From assembly GCA_037444405.1 (NCBI GenBank), contig JBBIML010000008.1, forward strand, positions 128,001 through 192,000: a stretch of DNA of 64,000 nucleotides, read 5' to 3'. Made by a program: the position numbers and the translations under genes. Below are positions 5,108 through 54,516 of this stretch, piece after piece; position 1 is the stretch's first letter; each line of letters begins with the position of its first letter. The DNA is from Armatimonadota bacterium. GTDB lineage: Bacteria; Armatimonadota; Fimbriimonadia; Fimbriimonadales; GBS-DC. The notes under the pieces are model-generated. The model saw only the letters and a program-made list of their open reading frames with translations. It searched no databases and was not told the DNA's origin.

Positions 5108-5199
5108 CCCCTCATCCCCAGCCCCTCTCCCACGCTGTGGGAGAAGGGAGTTTAATCCCTCTCCCTCGCCTGCGGGGGAGAGGGTACGAGTGAGGGGGG
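5108..5199. repeat. REP-like palindromic element, family A (two inverted units)
   Basis: CCCTCATCCCCAGCCCCTCTCCCAC-GCT-GTGGGAGAAGGG followed by an inverted unit CCCTCTCCCTCGCCTGCGGGGGAGAGGGTACGAGTGAGGGG; related copies elsewhere in the window. Confidence 0.8.
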
Positions 5200-48746: not shown

Positions 48747-48861
48747 CTGCGCCTATAACCGTTTGTGGCACTTCCGGTGGTGTTGCGCCCCTGCCCACCA
48801 GTATTACCACGCCCTGCCGCACAACAGAGAGAATACCCTCAAGGGGTATACTTCTGCTGCT

Positions 48862-50709
48862 ATGGGCACTGTTCGCACGGACACGGATGTTCAGATGGAG
48901 GTCTACTATCGCCCCCATCGCTCCAGTCGGGCGATTCTGGAGCCTGAGCCGCCGCTGAGCGAGCTGGGGGGCACTTTCTGGGTGATTTTGCACAATCGGC
49001 GACGCCAGCCTTGCAATGTGAGCGCGATTTTGATTAATGGTGTGCCCGCCGAATCGCTGACCAACGGCAACGGGCTGAACTGGTTCCGCCTCACGCCGGA
49101 GCCGCTGCCGCCTGATGGCGCCGCGTTGCTGATTCTGAACATGCAGGCGTCGCTGCTGCGTCGGTCGCCGCTGCGTCTGAGCCTGTGGCTGGCGGACGGC
49201 GCACGCCACGAATGGGTACTGCCCACCGATTCGTCGCCGCTGACGCTCGCCAGCGCGTGGCTGGACGGGCGCGCGTTGACGGTGGTGGTGCGCAACGACG
49301 ACCCGCAACGCGCATGGCGCATCGAGCGACTGCGCGTGGACGGCAGATCCGTGCGCTTCCGAACGCCCGATGCCACCCTCGCGCCCCGCACGCTCACTTT
49401 CGTCCATGCCCGACTGCCCCACACACCTGAACCCCCTACAAGCCTCATCCTGCAGGTCGATGCGCGCGCGGGCGCGGCGACCACCATGACGGCAGGCACG
49501 GTGCGACCCTTGCCCCGCTTCTTCCCGATAGGCACATGGCGGGATTCCGCATGGGGCGACGAAACGCTGATGCGCGAGCTGGTTGAGCGCGGCTTCGACA
49601 CCTTCGTGTTCAGCGCGTCGGATAAACCGAACGACACAGAGCGGCGTGCTTTCGAGCAGATATGTCCGCAATCGGGTGTCAGGGCGCTGGTGTTTGCGGG
49701 CTTCCCGCGCCCCACCGCGCGCTTTATCGAACGCCACGCCCGCAACCCCCACATCGCGGCTTATATGATCAAGGATGAACCCGACTGGACTTCGCCGCGC
49801 GAGGTGGACGGCTGGCATCTGCCCACGCTGTGCGAACGGATTGCTCAGTTCATTCGGGATCGGCAGGTGGCGCCGCCGCTCTATCTCAATCTGGCGCGTT
49901 CGCGTCGGTTCGGCGAGTTCGCCACCATCCCCGACATCGCCTGCTACGACGCCTATCGCGTCGGCGCGCCGATGCCCGATTTGTCGCCCGAGCCGTGGGG
50001 CAATCGGCTGGAGCTGACGGCGACCTACACAGAGGATTTGCGAGCGAACTGCGAGCCGCTGCCCTTCTGGGTGTGGGCGCAGGGAGCGCACGCATGGGAC
50101 GAGCGCATCTGGATCGATGGACAGATCGGGCGGGCATGCCCCACCCCTGAAGAGATTCGGGTTCAGCTCTGGCTCCAGCTGAGCCGCGGCGCGAAGGGCG
50201 TCCTGTGGTTCACCACCTTCCGCGAAGAGGAGTTCCGCCGCCACTACAGCGCGAACCCCACCCTGCAGCGCCTGCCCGAAGCGGAGCGCCAGCGCGCGAT
50301 GGAGCAACTGGTCGCGCATGGACGCGAGGCATACGCGGAGCAGACGCGCCTGAACCGCTTTTTGCAGACTGTACGCGACCGCCTGCTGCGCATGGAGTGG
50401 GCAGGCAACGCGACGATTGAGCAGGCGAGCAACCCGACACGACTGGACGCCTCACTTCTGCTGGGCGAGCGTGAAGCCGTGCTGTGGCTGACCAATCTGG
50501 ACTACGAGATGCACCCGCAGGGGTATCGGTTCCGCGAACAGCGCGCTATACGGGTGCTGGTGCCGTTGCCACGCTGGTTCAAGCCGCGCCGTGCGCAGTT
50601 TCGTGACCCTGCCAGCGAGCGCGAAATCGAGTTTCAGCCCGTGCCTGAAGGCGTGCGCATCGCGCTGGACGCCCTGCCCGAACAGGTGGGCAGTCTCTGG
50701 CTGGAGTGA
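48862..50709 (+). CDS. Hypothetical protein with beta-sandwich N-terminus and putative glycoside-hydrolase-like barrel
   Basis: Long ORF with host-like codon use; FFPIGTW, AYMIKDEPD and GAKGVLWF patterns. Confidence 0.6.
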   Translation: MGTVRTDTDVQMEVYYRPHRSSRAILEPEPPLSELGGTFWVILHNRRRQPCNVSAILINGVPAESLTNGNGLNWFRLTPEPLPPDGAALLILNMQASLLRRSPLRLSLWLADGARHEWVLPTDSSPLTLASAWLDGRALTVVVRNDDPQRAWRIERLRVDGRSVRFRTPDATLAPRTLTFVHARLPHTPEPPTSLILQVDARAGAATTMTAGTVRPLPRFFPIGTWRDSAWGDETLMRELVERGFDTFVFSASDKPNDTERRAFEQICPQSGVRALVFAGFPRPTARFIERHARNPHIAAYMIKDEPDWTSPREVDGWHLPTLCERIAQFIRDRQVAPPLYLNLARSRRFGEFATIPDIACYDAYRVGAPMPDLSPEPWGNRLELTATYTEDLRANCEPLPFWVWAQGAHAWDERIWIDGQIGRACPTPEEIRVQLWLQLSRGAKGVLWFTTFREEEFRRHYSANPTLQRLPEAERQRAMEQLVAHGREAYAEQTRLNRFLQTVRDRLLRMEWAGNATIEQASNPTRLDASLLLGEREAVLWLTNLDYEMHPQGYRFREQRAIRVLVPLPRWFKPRRAQFRDPASEREIEFQPVPEGVRIALDALPEQVGSLWLE

Positions 50710-50718
50710 ACCCGACGC

Positions 50719-51063
50719 TTAGCCTGGCGGCCAGGTCATCTGGCGACCGCCCAGCAGATGAAAATGCAGGTGGAACACCGACTGCCCCGCGGCGCGGTTC
50801 GTGTTCAACACCACGCGATAGCCCTCCGTCTCGATGCCCTCCTGGCGGGCAAGCTGAGCGCACACTTCCAGCAGATGCCCCAGCAGCGGCGCATGATCGG
50901 GCTGGGACTGCGCCAGGCTCGGAATGTGCGCGCGGGGCACCACCAGCACATGCACGGGCGCCTGCGGGTTAATGTCCCGAAAGGCGACCGCATGCTCGTC
51001 TTCATAGATGATATTGGCAGGTATCTCCCGCGCCACGATTTTGCAAAACAGGCATTCACTCAT
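50719..51063 (-). CDS. hinT: Histidine triad nucleotide-binding protein
   Basis: CLFCKI, FRDINPQAPVHVLVVP, GQSVFHLHFHLLGGR..WPPG. Confidence 0.96.
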   Translation of the reverse strand: MSECLFCKIVAREIPANIIYEDEHAVAFRDINPQAPVHVLVVPRAHIPSLAQSQPDHAPLLGHLLEVCAQLARQEGIETEGYRVVLNTNRAAGQSVFHLHFHLLGGRQMTWPPG

Positions 51064-51802
51064 GGTGGCTCTCCTCCTTCAGGTGGGTCAGGCGCACGCC
51101 CGTCAGCAGCTCCCGCAGCTTCTGCAGCACCTCCTGCTCCATCTGGCGCACCTCGTCGACCTTGAGCGAGAACATCTCGGCGACCTCTTCGTGCGTATGC
51201 ACGCGCTCGCCATGCAGCCCATACAGGAGCTTGATGAGCGCGCGTTCAGCAGGCAGCAGGGTCGCCAGCGCGCTCTCTAACTGCTTGCCGTCAACGCTCA
51301 GCGGGTCCAGCGCCTCGGCTTGCGCGGCGAGCGTGGCTTTCTGACGCTTCTCCCGCTCGTGCCACATGCGCACCACGCCCTCCACCTGCCGATAGTTAAC
51401 TGTCTCCACATAGTAGCCCTCCGCCCAGAAACTGCGCTTGCCGATACGCCGTTCCAGACGCGGCAACGCTTCAAACAGGCGGTGCGCTGTACCGCGCTTG
51501 ATATTGCCCACCAAATCGGTCAGCGCCACCGTCGGCTTATAACTAACCAGCAGATGCACCTGGTTCGGCTTTAGATAGTAGGCGACGAGCTGATACTCAT
51601 ATTGCTGGCAGACCTCCCGCAGCGCATGGATGAAGGCGGGGATAACCTCCTCATCTAACAGCGGCTGACGGGCGCGAGTGTAGAAAGTCGCGAGGCAATA
51701 CAAACGGTAGGCGCTCGATCCACTGGTGTGGACCTGCTCATAAGGCGACCCCGTAGTCTGTCGTGCTGGTGAACCAGCCGTCTGTTCGCGTTGTGCCGGC
51801 AT
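51056..51802 (-). CDS. Catalytically degenerate IS200/IS605 TnpA-like domain fused to sigma-70 region 4
   Basis: Residues about 25-150 are Y1-transposase-like (PNQVHLLV, LVGNIKRGTA, SFWAEGYYVETV); residues about 174-232 are sigma r4-like (LATLLPAERALIKLLYGL...THEEVAEMF...VRQMEQEVLQKLR); GGAGG RBS. Confidence 0.85.
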   Translation of the reverse strand: MPAQREQTAGSPARQTTGSPYEQVHTSGSSAYRLYCLATFYTRARQPLLDEEVIPAFIHALREVCQQYEYQLVAYYLKPNQVHLLVSYKPTVALTDLVGNIKRGTAHRLFEALPRLERRIGKRSFWAEGYYVETVNYRQVEGVVRMWHEREKRQKATLAAQAEALDPLSVDGKQLESALATLLPAERALIKLLYGLHGERVHTHEEVAEMFSLKVDEVRQMEQEVLQKLRELLTGVRLTHLKEESHHE

Positions 51803-51904
51803 TCCTTCCACGCCTCCACACAAAAAGCCCTGTACAGCCTATCTTCCATAGTATACCCCACTTCTTGCGCTCCTTCCTGCCTGCACAGGTAAAATTCCTG
51901 TGAA

Positions 51905-53278
51905 ATGGGCGCACCGAAACGACCAGTGCTGGCGATTGTGGGACGACCGAATGTGGGCAAATCGACGCTTTTTAATCGCCTGCTGGGTCGGCGGGTGGCA
52001 ATTGTGGAGGCGATACCGGGCGTGACGCGCGACCGCCTGTATGGTGAAGCCGAGTGGCAGGCTCGCCCCTTTACCGTAATCGACACGGGCGGAATCCTGT
52101 TCGGTGCGGACGACCCGCTGCTGGAGCAGGTGCGCGTGCAGGCGCAAATCGCCATCCACGAAGCCGACTGCGTGCTGTTTCTGGTGGACGCCCGCGAGGG
52201 GCTGAACCCCGTCGATGAAGAGATTGCCAATCTCCTGCGCCGCAGCGGCAAGCCTGTGCTGCTGCTGGTAAACAAAGCTGATAACCCTGCACGCTGGGAA
52301 GCCCAGCGCGCCGAGTTCTTCCGACTGGGGCTGGGCGAGCCTATCCCCATCTCCGCCATTCACGGACATAACTTGGCCGAAGTGCTGGAAGAAGCCTTCC
52401 AGCGCATCGAGGCGGACGCCGCACCCGAAGCGGAGGAAGAGGCTCTTGAGCCGCTCCGACTGGCGATTGTGGGTCGACCGAATGTGGGCAAATCGTCGCT
52501 GCTGAACGCGATCCTGAACGAGCCGCGCGCGATTGTGAGTGAGAAGGCGGGCACCACACGCGACGCGCTGGACACACCCTTCACCTGGAACGGTCAGCCG
52601 ATGGTGCTGATCGACACGGCGGGCATCCGTCGCCCCGGTCAGGTGCAGGGTTCGCTGGACTATTATGCGCAGTTGCGAGCGGAGCGCGCCCTGCAGCGCG
52701 CCGATGTCGCGCTGGTGGTCATCGACGCGAAAGAGGGGCTGACCCATCGCGACCGCCGAATCGCCCAGCTCGCCATCGACGCTGGACGCGCCTGCGTCTG
52801 GGTCGCCAACAAGTGGGACCTGGTGGAGCCGCCCGACGGTCAACTCGCCCAAAATACGCCCGCCAAACGCGACTTCATCCGACTGGTTCGGCAGAGCGCG
52901 CCCGCGCTCGATTTTGTGCCCCTCCAGTTCGTGTCGGCGCTCCATCAGGTGGGCATCGAACCACTGCTGAAAACCGCCCTGCAGGTCGCCGAGTTCCACA
53001 GCATGCGTGTCTCAACGGGCGAACTCAATCGGCTCATTCACGACGCGCTCTATGAGCGACCCTACTCGCGCAAGGGCAAGCCGCTTAAGATTTACTACGC
53101 CACGATGGCAGAGGTGCGCCCGCCCACGATTGTGCTGTTCGTGAACGACCCCGAAATTGTCCACTTCTCGTACCTGCGCTATCTGGAGAATCGGCTCCGC
53201 GAGCGATATGCCTACACGGGCACGCCCATCCGCTGGGTGGTGCGCCCCGCCCACAAGGAGCCAGAATCAACCACCTGA
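51905..53278 (+). CDS. der: Ribosome biogenesis GTPase Der (EngA)
   Basis: Two GRPNVGKS P-loops, DTGG/DTAG, NKAD/NKWD, KH-like C-terminus. Confidence 0.97.
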   Translation: MGAPKRPVLAIVGRPNVGKSTLFNRLLGRRVAIVEAIPGVTRDRLYGEAEWQARPFTVIDTGGILFGADDPLLEQVRVQAQIAIHEADCVLFLVDAREGLNPVDEEIANLLRRSGKPVLLLVNKADNPARWEAQRAEFFRLGLGEPIPISAIHGHNLAEVLEEAFQRIEADAAPEAEEEALEPLRLAIVGRPNVGKSSLLNAILNEPRAIVSEKAGTTRDALDTPFTWNGQPMVLIDTAGIRRPGQVQGSLDYYAQLRAERALQRADVALVVIDAKEGLTHRDRRIAQLAIDAGRACVWVANKWDLVEPPDGQLAQNTPAKRDFIRLVRQSAPALDFVPLQFVSALHQVGIEPLLKTALQVAEFHSMRVSTGELNRLIHDALYERPYSRKGKPLKIYYATMAEVRPPTIVLFVNDPEIVHFSYLRYLENRLRERYAYTGTPIRWVVRPAHKEPESTT

Positions 53279-54324: not shown

Positions 54325-54516
54325 CTATTTGCCGCCGTACTTCTTATAGGTCGCCTCGTCCACGAACTTGGTCAGCTTGCGCCCGTTGTACTCGGCTTTC
54401 AGGGCGTAGCGCACCTGCTTCTTGCCGGACTTGGTGGTCCGCTCATACTTGACCGCCTTCACCTGATTGTCCGGCACATCAATCATCTTGCGGTCCTTCA
54501 CGCTGAAGAACTGCAT
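54325..54516 (-). CDS. Small basic protein, candidate nucleoid-associated protein
   Basis: 63 aa, Lys/Arg-rich, AAGGAGGGAGG RBS, strongly biased codons. Confidence 0.8.
   Translation of the reverse strand: MQFFSVKDRKMIDVPDNQVKAVKYERTTKSGKKQVRYALKAEYNGRKLTKFVDEATYKKYGGK

Follow-up and report, generated by a model that had tools for sequence, protein, structure and literature searches.

A catalytically dead IS200-type TnpA joined to a sigma-70 region 4-like module: a candidate host regulator in one family of Armatimonadota

Introduction

What role can a gene play whose product joins an IS200-type TnpA with degenerate catalytic residues to a domain resembling region 4 of sigma-70? The question is raised by an ORF in a 64,000-nucleotide stretch of DNA from an Armatimonadota bacterium (hereinafter the window). 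The original prediction took its product for a catalytically dead transposase, exapted as a nucleic-acid-binding module wired to RNA polymerase, in an architecture not previously described. Known domestications of IS200/IS605 proteins concern TnpB (Cas12, TldR and the dCas12f that works with sigma-E) and also TnpA, in the form of the RAYTs, which have retained catalysis.

Results and discussion

Domain architecture and fold

The ORF stands as an intact reading frame with an ATG start (Table 1); an alternative, longer version would begin at a TTG at 51823, and the orthologues begin at the ATG position. Both predicted domains exceed their Pfam cut-offs, namely Y1_Tnp over residues 32-141 (75.9 bits vs a cut-off of 23) and Sigma70_r4 over residues 178-231 (33.7 bits vs 24.1), and they are the only families to do so in this protein, four others being weak and below cut-off. 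The NCBIfam model transpos_IS200 (NF033573) gives 79.1 bits (cut-off 55), and PDB sequences of SigA region 4 match the C-terminal domain with e-values of 1e-8 to 1e-6. The best NCBIfam and PDB matches of this domain are RpoD/SigA, i.e., it is primary-sigma-like, with the RpoD-type NCBIfam models covering residues 172-233 only. Structure prediction recovered both folds: Foldseek matched the Y1 part to ISDra2 TnpA (2xm3_D, e-value 1.2e-9, target TM 0.75) and the region 4 part to 1rio_H, 4g6d_A and 6onu_H (target TM 0.73-0.84). The helix-turn-helix fold of region 4 is retained and is modeled confidently from residue 180 to residue 230; pLDDT is below 50 at residues 1-31. Within this N-terminal tail, S19, E22, G28 and S30 are invariant or almost so among 28 aligned sequences, and its SAYRL motif is common to the catalytically intact relatives. 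With both domains above curated cut-offs and 44 further homologues that are full-length or nearly so (one being a 200-aa fragment), the domain match is far beyond chance.

Table 1. Coordinates of the fusion gene, the parts of its product and adjoining features (positions in the window)
Feature	Position	Strand	Remarks
GGGTATACT box	51850..51858	-	likely -10 of a promoter belonging to the fusion gene itself; lies 47 nt before the ATG
Fusion ORF (P0001)	51056..51802	-	248 aa from the ATG; stop codon included
N-terminal tail, residues 1-30	51713..51802	-	basic, predicted disordered; ends with conserved SP[FY]E..[RH]T.GSS leading into strand 1
Y1_Tnp (IS200-type TnpA) domain, residues 32-141	51380..51709	-	Pfam, NCBIfam, Foldseek
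Degenerate HUH motif N80-Q81-V82-H83	51554..51565	-	aligned to D-H-V-H of ISDra2 TnpA and 7 relatives
Former catalytic helix (alpha-D), residues 138-150	51353..51391	-	Tyr nucleophile absent
Sigma-70 region 4-like domain, residues 173-233	51104..51286	-	four helices; a fifth, C-terminal one is missing
Former -35 recognition helix K214-E224 (KVDEVRQMEQE)	51131..51163	-	aligned to SigA TRERIRQIEAK; now acidic
hinT (HIT-family)	50719..51063	-	ATG falls within the final 8 nt of the fusion ORF

Loss of the catalytic residues of the Y1 domain

The reading of N80-Q81-V82-H83 in place of D-H-V-H was borne out (nucleotides 51554-51562 encode Q81-V82-H83), and the loss extends to the orthologues. The first HUH position (residue 81) is Gln in all 59 distinct members of the family, and the second (residue 83) is His in 40, Asn in 12, Tyr in three, Gln in two and Thr or Ile in one each. 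A conserved helix Tyr is likewise missing: the Tyr of the Y---Q motif falls at V143 in the HMMER alignment and at M146 in that of MAFFT, and these positions hold Tyr in none and one of the 59 members, respectively. Trp147 had been placed at the Tyr position, which is probably wrong, since HMMER aligns it with the Gln of Y---Q (where MAFFT has an Arg). W147 and R150 are near-invariant and family-specific (55 and 53 of 59 members), and together with R103, H107 and R123 make up the family-specific invariant residues of the Y1 domain, the net charge of which ranges from -2 to +6 with a median of 0, i.e., it is not strongly basic. Among the seven nearest relatives outside the family, [DE]H[VM]H is kept in all and Y---Q in six, the seventh (P0085) having Y---N. 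The His of the YHIVF motif is absent as originally noted; its absence says little, since the intact close relatives P0078 (Gln) and P0084 (Arg) also lack it.

Judged by these residues, transposase catalysis is lost throughout the family. Some Rep proteins are active despite Gln-containing HUH variants, and Tyr occurs at residue 151 in seven of the 59 members (one clade) and at 146 or 142 in single sequences; having weighed these points, we consider residual or non-canonical chemistry unlikely.

A single-copy host gene under purifying selection

In its own genome, which is 98.9% complete, the fusion gene is the sole Y1_Tnp match. It occurs once in each of the 16 sampled genomes of its family, which span six genera and are independent assemblies, and in none of the 135 genomes from the sister families (f2, 0/120; f3, 0/12; f42, 0/3). 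The protein tree follows the genera, the three multi-member ones each being monophyletic (support 89-100). Flanking hairpins, inverted repeats, terminators or IS ends were not found, the only inverted repeats being weak ones within the ORF; the 24 neighbor ORFs scanned contain no tnpB, and positions 50400-52200 give no Rfam match and no evident guide RNA. Across 24 within-genus pairs, dN/dS was 0.03-0.18 for the whole gene, similar to the 0.02-0.14 of the neighboring hinT. Taken separately, the Y1 domain gave 0.01-0.17 and region 4 gave 0.04-0.29, making the Y1 domain the most constrained part.

The fusion gene belongs to the host and is no insertion sequence. The expectations of a single copy and of dN/dS below 1 both held, and none of the refuting conditions attached to the original prediction came true: the Y1 fold is present, and the gene is neither unique to one assembly nor found as a multi-copy IS form. 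Exaptation with an intact ORF, as first proposed, agrees with this strong purifying selection on both domains, and inheritance looks vertical, from a single origin at the base of one Armatimonadota family. We regard it as highly probable that the locus encodes an exapted, catalytically dead TnpA-sigma-4 fusion. As this is a single-copy, family-wide gene whose product has lost the cutting residues and has been joined to a sigma domain, the enzyme of a jumping gene has probably become a host regulator.

The region 4-like module and its lost promoter contacts

The C-terminal module resembles sigma-70 region 4 in its four-helix 4.1/4.2 fold and in sequence, including the LLPxER..L..GL motif; it differs in its replaced contact residues, its acidity and the absence of regions 1-3 (a Pfam scan of the protein gave no Sigma70_r2 match up to an e-value of 1). 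R584, E585 and R588 are -35 contact residues of sigma region 4 (PMC2613000). The equivalent of R584 is V, I, P, A or H in all 59 members and never basic; that of E585 is D or E in 49; and that of R588 is Arg in 16, with 12 different residues across the members. At the equivalents of R586 and K593, E or D is found in 59 and 53 of the 59, respectively, R554 is represented by A, G, V, P or T, and R562 by L. The net charge of the domain lies between -5 and 0 (28 members), and that of the recognition helix/last 20 residues is -1, vs +2 to +6 for the 14 sigma factors that this genome encodes. With its -35-reading and DNA-backbone residues replaced and the module net acidic, the -35 binding ascribed to region 4 in the original prediction is not upheld. 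The absence of regions 1-3, the replaced -35 and backbone contacts and the acidity together argue that the protein cannot be a sigma factor by itself, and the module looks like a protein-docking module rather than a promoter reader.

A putative transcription adaptor

We tentatively favor a mechanism in which the dead Y1 domain, probably dimeric, would still bind a specific nucleic acid of single-stranded or hairpin form as its ancestor did, and the acidic sigma-4 module would provide a protein-docking surface. Its likeliest target would be the beta-flap tip of RNA polymerase or, alternatively, some region 4-binding protein; the fusion protein would thus couple a nucleic-acid signal to transcription, as neither a -35 reader nor a transposase. 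Taken whole, we give this statement somewhat less than an even chance. Among the points against it, the Y1 domain is not strongly basic, and the one conserved neighbor, hinT, is not known to be linked to transcription in bacteria. Its more explicit form, in which the Y1 domain would recognize ssDNA, hairpin DNA or nascent RNA and a sigma-4 mimic would dock on the flap tip, such that RNA polymerase is recruited, paused or released with no -35 recognition, is distinctly unlikely as stated. The wiring to RNA polymerase and the hairpin, ssDNA or RNA binding of the original prediction are points that we infer only.

Sigma region 4 normally sits on the beta-flap tip of RNA polymerase. The tip reads LVRIIFG in all 14 main-clade genomes and LI[IV]AIFG in the two deep-branching members of the family and in four sister-family genomes, so that the deep-branching pair carry the fusion gene with the ancestral tip. 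The change from LI[IV]AIFG to LVRIIFG is a lead only: it falls on the same single branch as the hinT linkage and W147, and hence counts as one event and not as statistical support. Complex prediction for the sigma-4 module (residues 165-240) with the RpoB flap of the same genome (P0195, residues 896-1050) scored 0.02 in both runs, which had no controls, and speaks neither for nor against binding. The fifth C-terminal helix that primary sigma factors have is also missing from the module, a difference of uncertain weight for flap docking.

Alternatively, the protein could be an ordinary dimeric dsDNA-binding factor, the sigma-4 helix-turn-helix having been re-tuned to a new operator and the Y1 domain serving as a dimerization scaffold, with no docking on RNA polymerase. 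IS200-family TnpA is an obligate dimer (PMC3597680), and a dimer would supply two helix-turn-helix units, as in classical repressors; moreover, that fold is kept with high model confidence at residues 180-230, and K214 and Q220 of the recognition helix are conserved in 56 and 53 of the 59 members. Nevertheless, we judge this account unlikely. Both the recognition helix and the module as a whole are net acidic, unlike the 14 sigma region 4 domains of the genome, the backbone-contact Arg/Lys residues have given way to L, E/D and E/D (53-59 of the 59 members), and the variable R588 position, with its 12 residues, is a poor fit to a conserved operator. In addition, the constraint on the Y1 domain, the strongest in the protein (dN/dS 0.01-0.17), and its invariant R103, H107, R123, W147 and R150 go beyond the needs of a scaffold.

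Linkage to hinT and the upstream promoter

The hinT gene of the window matches the HIT-family model ThsC of PADLOC (e-value 2.4e-11), and the orthologous downstream ORF at another locus (L053) matches Pfam HIT (e-value 7.8e-30). The predicted synteny with hinT holds in 14 of 16 genomes, from four genera, in which the two genes adjoin and all other neighbors vary; that with der is confined to the window's own genus (4/16 loci). In all 14 linked loci, the stop of the fusion gene and the start of hinT overlap by 4 or 8 nt, and as the hinT ATG thus lies inside the end of the fusion ORF, they probably form an operon and are translated together.

This linkage bears on another reading, namely that the protein is a partner or regulator of HinT (e.g., in nucleotide-signal-dependent control) or a sigma-4 decoy that soaks up a region 4-binding factor. 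The overlap has been kept across the four genera while other neighbors changed, and a sigma-4 surface retained with loss of its DNA contacts is what would be expected of a mimic. On the other hand, the two deep-branching members have the gene with no adjoining hinT, and no candidate for a partner that binds sigma-4 emerged. As a housekeeping gene, hinT is found by itself in five genomes of the sister families, and the linkage may thus be only a retained insertion site. Hence, we hold this reading to be rather improbable.

Upstream of the gene, [GT]GGTATACT is found at a similar distance in 13 of the 16 orthologous loci despite their differing upstream genes, and the ribosome-binding region is conserved along with this promoter. 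The genome holds 238 occurrences of GGGTATA[AC]T, and among the 45 sites listed the motif often lies a short way ahead of a start codon or tRNA gene. The GGTATACT-type box is likely the general -10 of this genome, which would give the fusion gene a housekeeping-type promoter of its own; a simple TTGACA/TATAAT scan found no sigma-70 consensus promoter site. Defense and phage libraries gave generic region 4 and transposase matches only.

Enzymatic, relic and other origins

That the protein is still a nucleic-acid-processing enzyme (a transposase or REP nuclease) with non-canonical residues, perhaps acting on REP-like hairpins, is very improbable. The genome does have 118 REP/REPIN-like hairpin copies and no other Y1 gene, one HUH His is kept in 40 of the 59 members, and one clade has Tyr151; yet Gln replaces the first His in every member, no Tyr is conserved, the gene is single-copy with no IS ends, no REP copy lies nearer than about 4 kb, and the RAYT model NF047646 gives 40.1 bits vs a cut-off of 80. 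The REP element is, moreover, absent from 4/4 gene-bearing genomes of other genera, yet reaches 22-38 copies in three genomes that lack the gene; since it does not follow the gene across genomes, the REP-like hairpin family was rejected as a ligand. One parallel could be cited for a gene devoid of function, be it a relic in decay or a chimera from assembly or gene calling: the unrelated library protein P0075, in which an intact TnpA runs directly into a Firmicute-type RpoD region 4, itself looks like an insertion or a chimera. For the fusion gene, this view is hardly credible given intact ORFs in 16/16 genomes and 44 further homologues, a dN/dS of 0.03-0.18 and a conserved promoter and ribosome-binding region.

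The source of the region 4 module is not identifiable within its own genome, as the best matches there are only 35-36% identical. Two further scenarios were set aside. A split sigma factor completed in trans finds no clear orphan among 22 Sigma70_r2 loci, nearly all of which have an in-frame region 4 (two cases, C11:103056 and C9:65424, are weak or ambiguous). Insertion of an IS into a sigma gene beside hinT is at odds with five sister-family genomes, in which no sigma remnant lies near hinT, its neighbors there being MiaB-like radical SAM, KdtA, LpxK, MgtE, aconitase and others.

Relationship to known systems and significance

The fusion protein resembles IS200/IS605 TnpA (ISDra2, IS608) in fold, sequence family, the FW.EGY..E core and the SAYRL motif. 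It differs in lacking the first HUH His, the Tyr, subterminal hairpins and a neighboring tnpB (24 ORFs), in being single-copy and vertically inherited, and in the added sigma-4 module. With RAYT/TnpA-REP proteins, of which the published account speaks as the first domesticated prokaryotic transposase (PMC8266576), it shares the status of a single-copy, host-maintained Y1 derivative. RAYTs are described as keeping HUH and Tyr (Y---Q in helix alpha-D) and as being flanked by REPs (PMC6006769), whereas the fusion has lost catalysis, has no flanking REPs and falls below the cut-off of the RAYT model; the word "sigma" is absent from the main text of that RAYT classification.

A functional parallel is offered by TldR, described as a nuclease-dead TnpB derivative acting in transcription (PMC10705468), and by dCas12f, reported to work with an ECF sigma factor, recruiting via that factor and RNA polymerase (PMC12259090): these too are proteins of IS200/IS605-type elements that are no longer catalytic and have been co-opted for gene control. 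The likeness is functional only, as the fusion has no TnpB/Cas12 family match; they are RNA-guided and descend from TnpB, the RuvC nuclease, whereas the fusion descends from TnpA, has no evident guide RNA and carries only a covalently joined region 4. In line with the claim of novelty, no description of this architecture was found in the literature searched, i.e., main texts of the open literature, including passages of PMC6006769 and PMC8987985.

The fusion would be the first TnpA lineage shown to be catalytically dead yet under strong selection, and the first to be fused to part of the transcription machinery. Should the more explicit form of the adaptor mechanism hold, TnpA would also have its first counterpart to the TldR and dCas12f-sigma systems that arose from TnpB. 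The range of the fusion is narrow, a single Armatimonadota family whose members are uncultured or rarely cultured, and its function is putative; within that range it offers a natural experiment with one origin, dated by the host lineage, and sister families that do not have the gene, and candidate interaction partners are defined in the variant beta-flap tip and HinT. Among 18 of the best 150 library matches that were scanned with Pfam, P0075 was the only other protein to combine Y1 and sigma-4, its catalytic motifs being intact, and those of the 18 with two-stretch matches of about 280 aa proved to be tandem Y1-Y1 proteins.

A Y1 transposase domain and a sigma region-4 module in one reading frame

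The fusion gene comprises 248 uninterrupted codons from an ATG that the orthologues share, so that an alternative TTG start is unneeded (see the table of coordinates). Pfam detects a Y1_Tnp domain at residues 32–141 (75.9 bits; cut-off 23) and a Sigma70_r4 domain at residues 178–231 (33.7 bits; cut-off 24.1); no sigma region besides this one is detected. The NCBIfam model transpos_IS200 covers the N-terminal half (79.1 bits; cut-off 55), on which the RAYT model stays below its cut-off (40.1 bits versus 80), and matches to the RpoD/SigA models are confined to residues about 172–233. An AlphaFold2 model generated from 28 family members (mean pLDDT 76.6, pTM 0.57, with poor quality in three of five models) predicts a β-α-β-β-α-α-β core, a long helix (137–164) and a four-helix C-terminal bundle, with disordered tails (1–31 and 240–248). 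In Foldseek searches the modelled core matched ISDra2 TnpA (2xm3_D; E 1.2e-9, target TM 0.75) and the bundle matched sigma region-4 chains (1rio_H, 4g6d_A and 6onu_H; target TM 0.73–0.84, E 4e-3 to 8e-3). The two domains of the original prediction are thus recovered both as profiles and as folds.

Coordinates of the features in the window and elsewhere in the source genome
Feature	Location	Strand	Remarks
Fusion ORF	window 51056-51802	-
Alternative TTG start	window 51823
GGGTATA[AC]T box at the fusion locus	window 51850-51858	-
ORF beside hinT	window 48763-50709	+	648 aa; conserved there within the genus only; no Pfam match at E <= 1e-5
Lysine-rich ORF	window 54325-54516	-	63 aa (MQFFSVKDRK...); otherwise intergenic DNA
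REP/REPIN-like copies	window, near 5177, 6161 and 47284
RpoB flap tip	C35:11828-11847
Sigma70_r4 frame	C7:217503-217637		148 aa; no region 2 in frame; an ECF sigma gene lies just downstream
Sigma70_r4 frame	C11:1046-1183		146 aa; no region 2 in frame

Loss of the catalytic residues

Residues were counted in 59 distinct family sequences (63, from 47 library proteins and 16 genome loci, minus duplicates). The D-H-V-H motif of ISDra2 TnpA aligns in HMMER with N80-Q81-V82-H83; the first HUH histidine is Gln in 59/59, and the second position holds H in 40, N in 12, Y in three, Q in two, and T and I in one each. The predicted HUH loss is accordingly confirmed for the first histidine, the second being retained in 40/59. 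The position of the catalytic Tyr depends on the aligner (V143 in HMMER versus M146 in MAFFT), and neither places it at W147, as had been proposed, although the absence of a conserved Tyr stands. W147 is kept in 55/59 sequences, while Tyr never occurs at 143 and occurs once at 146 (fragment P0011). Since nine of the 59 have some Tyr within positions 138–152 (the remainder being Tyr151, as WE[ER]RY, in seven sequences of one clade and Tyr142 in one), the family lacks a conserved nucleophile, though not in an absolute sense. The seven nearest non-family relatives in a library of 1.84 billion proteins (P0061, P0066, P0069, P0078, P0084, P0085 and P0075) all have an intact [DE]H[VM]H, and six have Y---Q, given as a signature of IS200-type TnpA in PMC6006769 (P0085 has Y---N). 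The histidine of 'YHIVF' is indeed absent from the fusion protein, but this is uninformative about catalysis, since two catalytically intact relatives also lack it.

A single-copy host gene under purifying selection

The source genome (2.68 Mb, 98.9% complete) carries one fusion copy and no other Y1_Tnp match. Among the best 150 matches in a phylum sample of 201 genomes (244 weaker ones besides), only the source genome has a two-domain match, the rest presenting the sigma-4 or the Y1 part singly. A class-level survey of 151 genomes (E <= 1e-25) recovered the gene in 16, exactly one copy each: the source genome and 15/15 other genomes of its family, f1 (genera g1, g118, g119, g120, g121 and g122). 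It was found in none of the sister families f2 (0/120), f3 (0/12) and f42 (0/3). A word-indexed library yielded 45 fusion proteins counting the window's own (identity 45–100%; 235–254 aa, except two that are truncated to 200 and 223 aa), whose named sources are Armatimonadota or 'Fimbriimonadales bacterium' assemblies; an exhaustive profile search at E <= 1e-30 returned five representatives, all of the fusion family, and the ESM Atlas holds a single cluster of 140 members. In the protein tree g1, g118 and g120 are each monophyletic (support 92/96, 89/91 and 100/100), with G305 and G248 as a deep sister pair; tree and distribution fit a single origin and vertical descent.

No inverted repeats were found flanking the ORF. 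dN/dS (Nei-Gojobori, 24 within-genus pairs) is below 1, as anticipated, at 0.03–0.18 for the whole gene, 0.01–0.17 for the Y1 domain, 0.04–0.29 for region 4 and 0.04–0.49, often saturated, for the linker (137–172). Both domains lie near the neighboring hinT (0.02–0.14) and are therefore under constraint as tight as that on a housekeeping enzyme. The low dN/dS, together with one intact copy in 16/16 f1 genomes, rules out a pseudogene or chimera, and the status of the gene as a host gene, a domesticated transposase, is strongly supported.

Gene neighborhood and promoter

hinT (HIT family) lies directly downstream in 14/16 genomes, and in 14/14 of these the fusion stop codon falls inside its first 8 nt (overlap 4 or 8 nt). 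The only unlinked loci are those of the deep-branching G305 and G248 (neighbors GH127 with NrdR-RNR and PyrB with VKOR-DsbA, respectively). The predicted synteny holds for hinT but not for der, which is divergent upstream in g1 only (4/16 loci), a DinG-like helicase taking its place in g118. A HinT-linked role, or that of a sigma-4 decoy, fits this coupling, but the deep clade has the gene without the linkage. In five sister-family genomes no sigma remnant was found beside hinT, whose neighbors there are unrelated.

A [GT]GGTATACT box is present 30–50 nt 5′ of the fusion ATG in 13/16 loci despite differing upstream genes. The source genome contains 238 copies of GGGTATA[AC]T; in the 45 sites inspected it often stands shortly 5′ of a start codon or tRNA gene, and an obvious TTGACA is often missing. 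The box appears to be the general promoter of the lineage, of an extended -10 type, so that the fusion gene would bear the organism's ordinary strong -10.

A sigma-4 module with altered DNA contacts

HMMER aligns SigA 'VTRERIRQIEAKALRKLR' with 'LKVDEVRQMEQEVLQKLR' of the fusion protein. In E. coli sigma-70, R584 and E585 touch bases -31 and -33, with R588 implicated, according to PMC2613000. The LLPxER..L..GL hydrophobic framework of the module is invariant. Contact positions, including the further sigma-70 contacts R586, K593, R562 and R554 (E. coli numbering), have diverged as tabulated.

Residues of the 59 fusion family members at sigma-70 contact positions
Position	Residues in the fusion family
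R584	V/I/P/A/H; basic residue in none
R586	E/D in 59/59
R588	12 different residues
K593	E/D in 53/59
R562	L in 59/59
R554	A/G/V/P/T

The net charge of the module is -5 to 0 (median -2; 28 members), and that of the recognition-helix segment is -1, versus +2 to +6 in the source genome's 14 bona fide sigma factors. A role of region 4 as a -35 reader is contradicted by this charge and by the R584 and R586 positions; judged by its residues, the module appears incapable of canonical -35 reading. A dimeric HTH repressor of the classical type is conceivable, though the acidity and variability of the recognition helix speak against it. Retention of the fold with erasure of the DNA contacts instead suggests a protein-docking role. 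The most likely target, by analogy, would be the RNA polymerase β-flap tip, on which region 4 sits in the holoenzyme (PMC2613000). The proposed connection with transcription is plausible.

The flap-tip helix of RpoB has the sequence LVRIIFG in the source genome, G226, G291 and G297, and LI[IV]AIFG in the deep f1 pair and in G156, G138, G147 and G192 (f2/f3). A degenerate DNA pattern for LVRIIFG matched 14/14 main-clade f1 genomes, 0/2 of the deep pair and 2/135 others, the last two being chance matches, since they lie in closed frames. The change falls on the same tree branch as hinT linkage and W147; the three thus count as a single event, not a correlation, and the variant is a lead rather than evidence for docking. 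Directly after the flap tip, RpoB (P0195, locus L070; residues about 985–1010) has a zinc-ribbon-like CxxC...CxxC insertion, intact in 6/6 f1 genomes examined and G138 and degenerate in G156, G147 and G192.

REP-like hairpins

In the REP/REPIN-like unit, a CCCTCTCCCC-loop-GGGGAGAGGG hairpin comes after the core CCTCACCCGTACCCTCTCC, and the units are often arranged as inverted doublets; no catalytically intact Y1 gene able to move them was found in the source genome. That the fusion protein is a residual nuclease on these abundant hairpins (118 copies in the source genome, 299 in its congener G225) is unlikely, as they are missing from four gene-carrying genomes of other genera and present (22–38 copies) in three sister-family genomes without the gene.

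Relationship to known systems and related architectures

RAYTs, which reside amid REPs, are Y1 transposases domesticated with their chemistry retained (PMC8266576 and PMC6006769); the fusion family shares their TnpA lineage, but unlike them is catalytically dead and carries a sigma fragment. TldR (PMC10705468) and dCas12f-sigmaE (PMC12259090) are described as dead TnpB-lineage proteins controlling transcription, the latter via a sigma factor; the fusion protein is likewise dead, but of TnpA lineage, and it shares the sigma connection of dCas12f-sigmaE, with its sigma fragment covalently fused. The family thus joins elements of both, and adds to the exapted transposon proteins, with a narrow taxonomic range. 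No description of the Y1_Tnp + Sigma70_r4 architecture was found in the openly accessible literature covered (main texts and abstracts).

Within the protein library, P0050, P0051, P0053–P0060 and others (450–1722 aa) match the sigma region-4 portion of the profile 5–13 times in tandem; in P0050, 10 such stretches (summing to 231 bits for Sigma70_r4) accompany a single region 2. P0075 (197 aa) runs from an intact IS200 TnpA (YHIVF, DHVHL, QKYIKEQ) directly into an RpoD region 4 of Firmicute type. It was probably produced by insertion of an IS into rpoD or by chimeric assembly, and it illustrates how a TnpA-region 4 fusion could arise. Proteins of about 280–290 aa with two tandem Y1_Tnp domains (P0052, P0067, P0074, P0076, P0079, P0087, P0104, P0111, P0161 and P0191) may represent the TnpA dimer in single-chain form.
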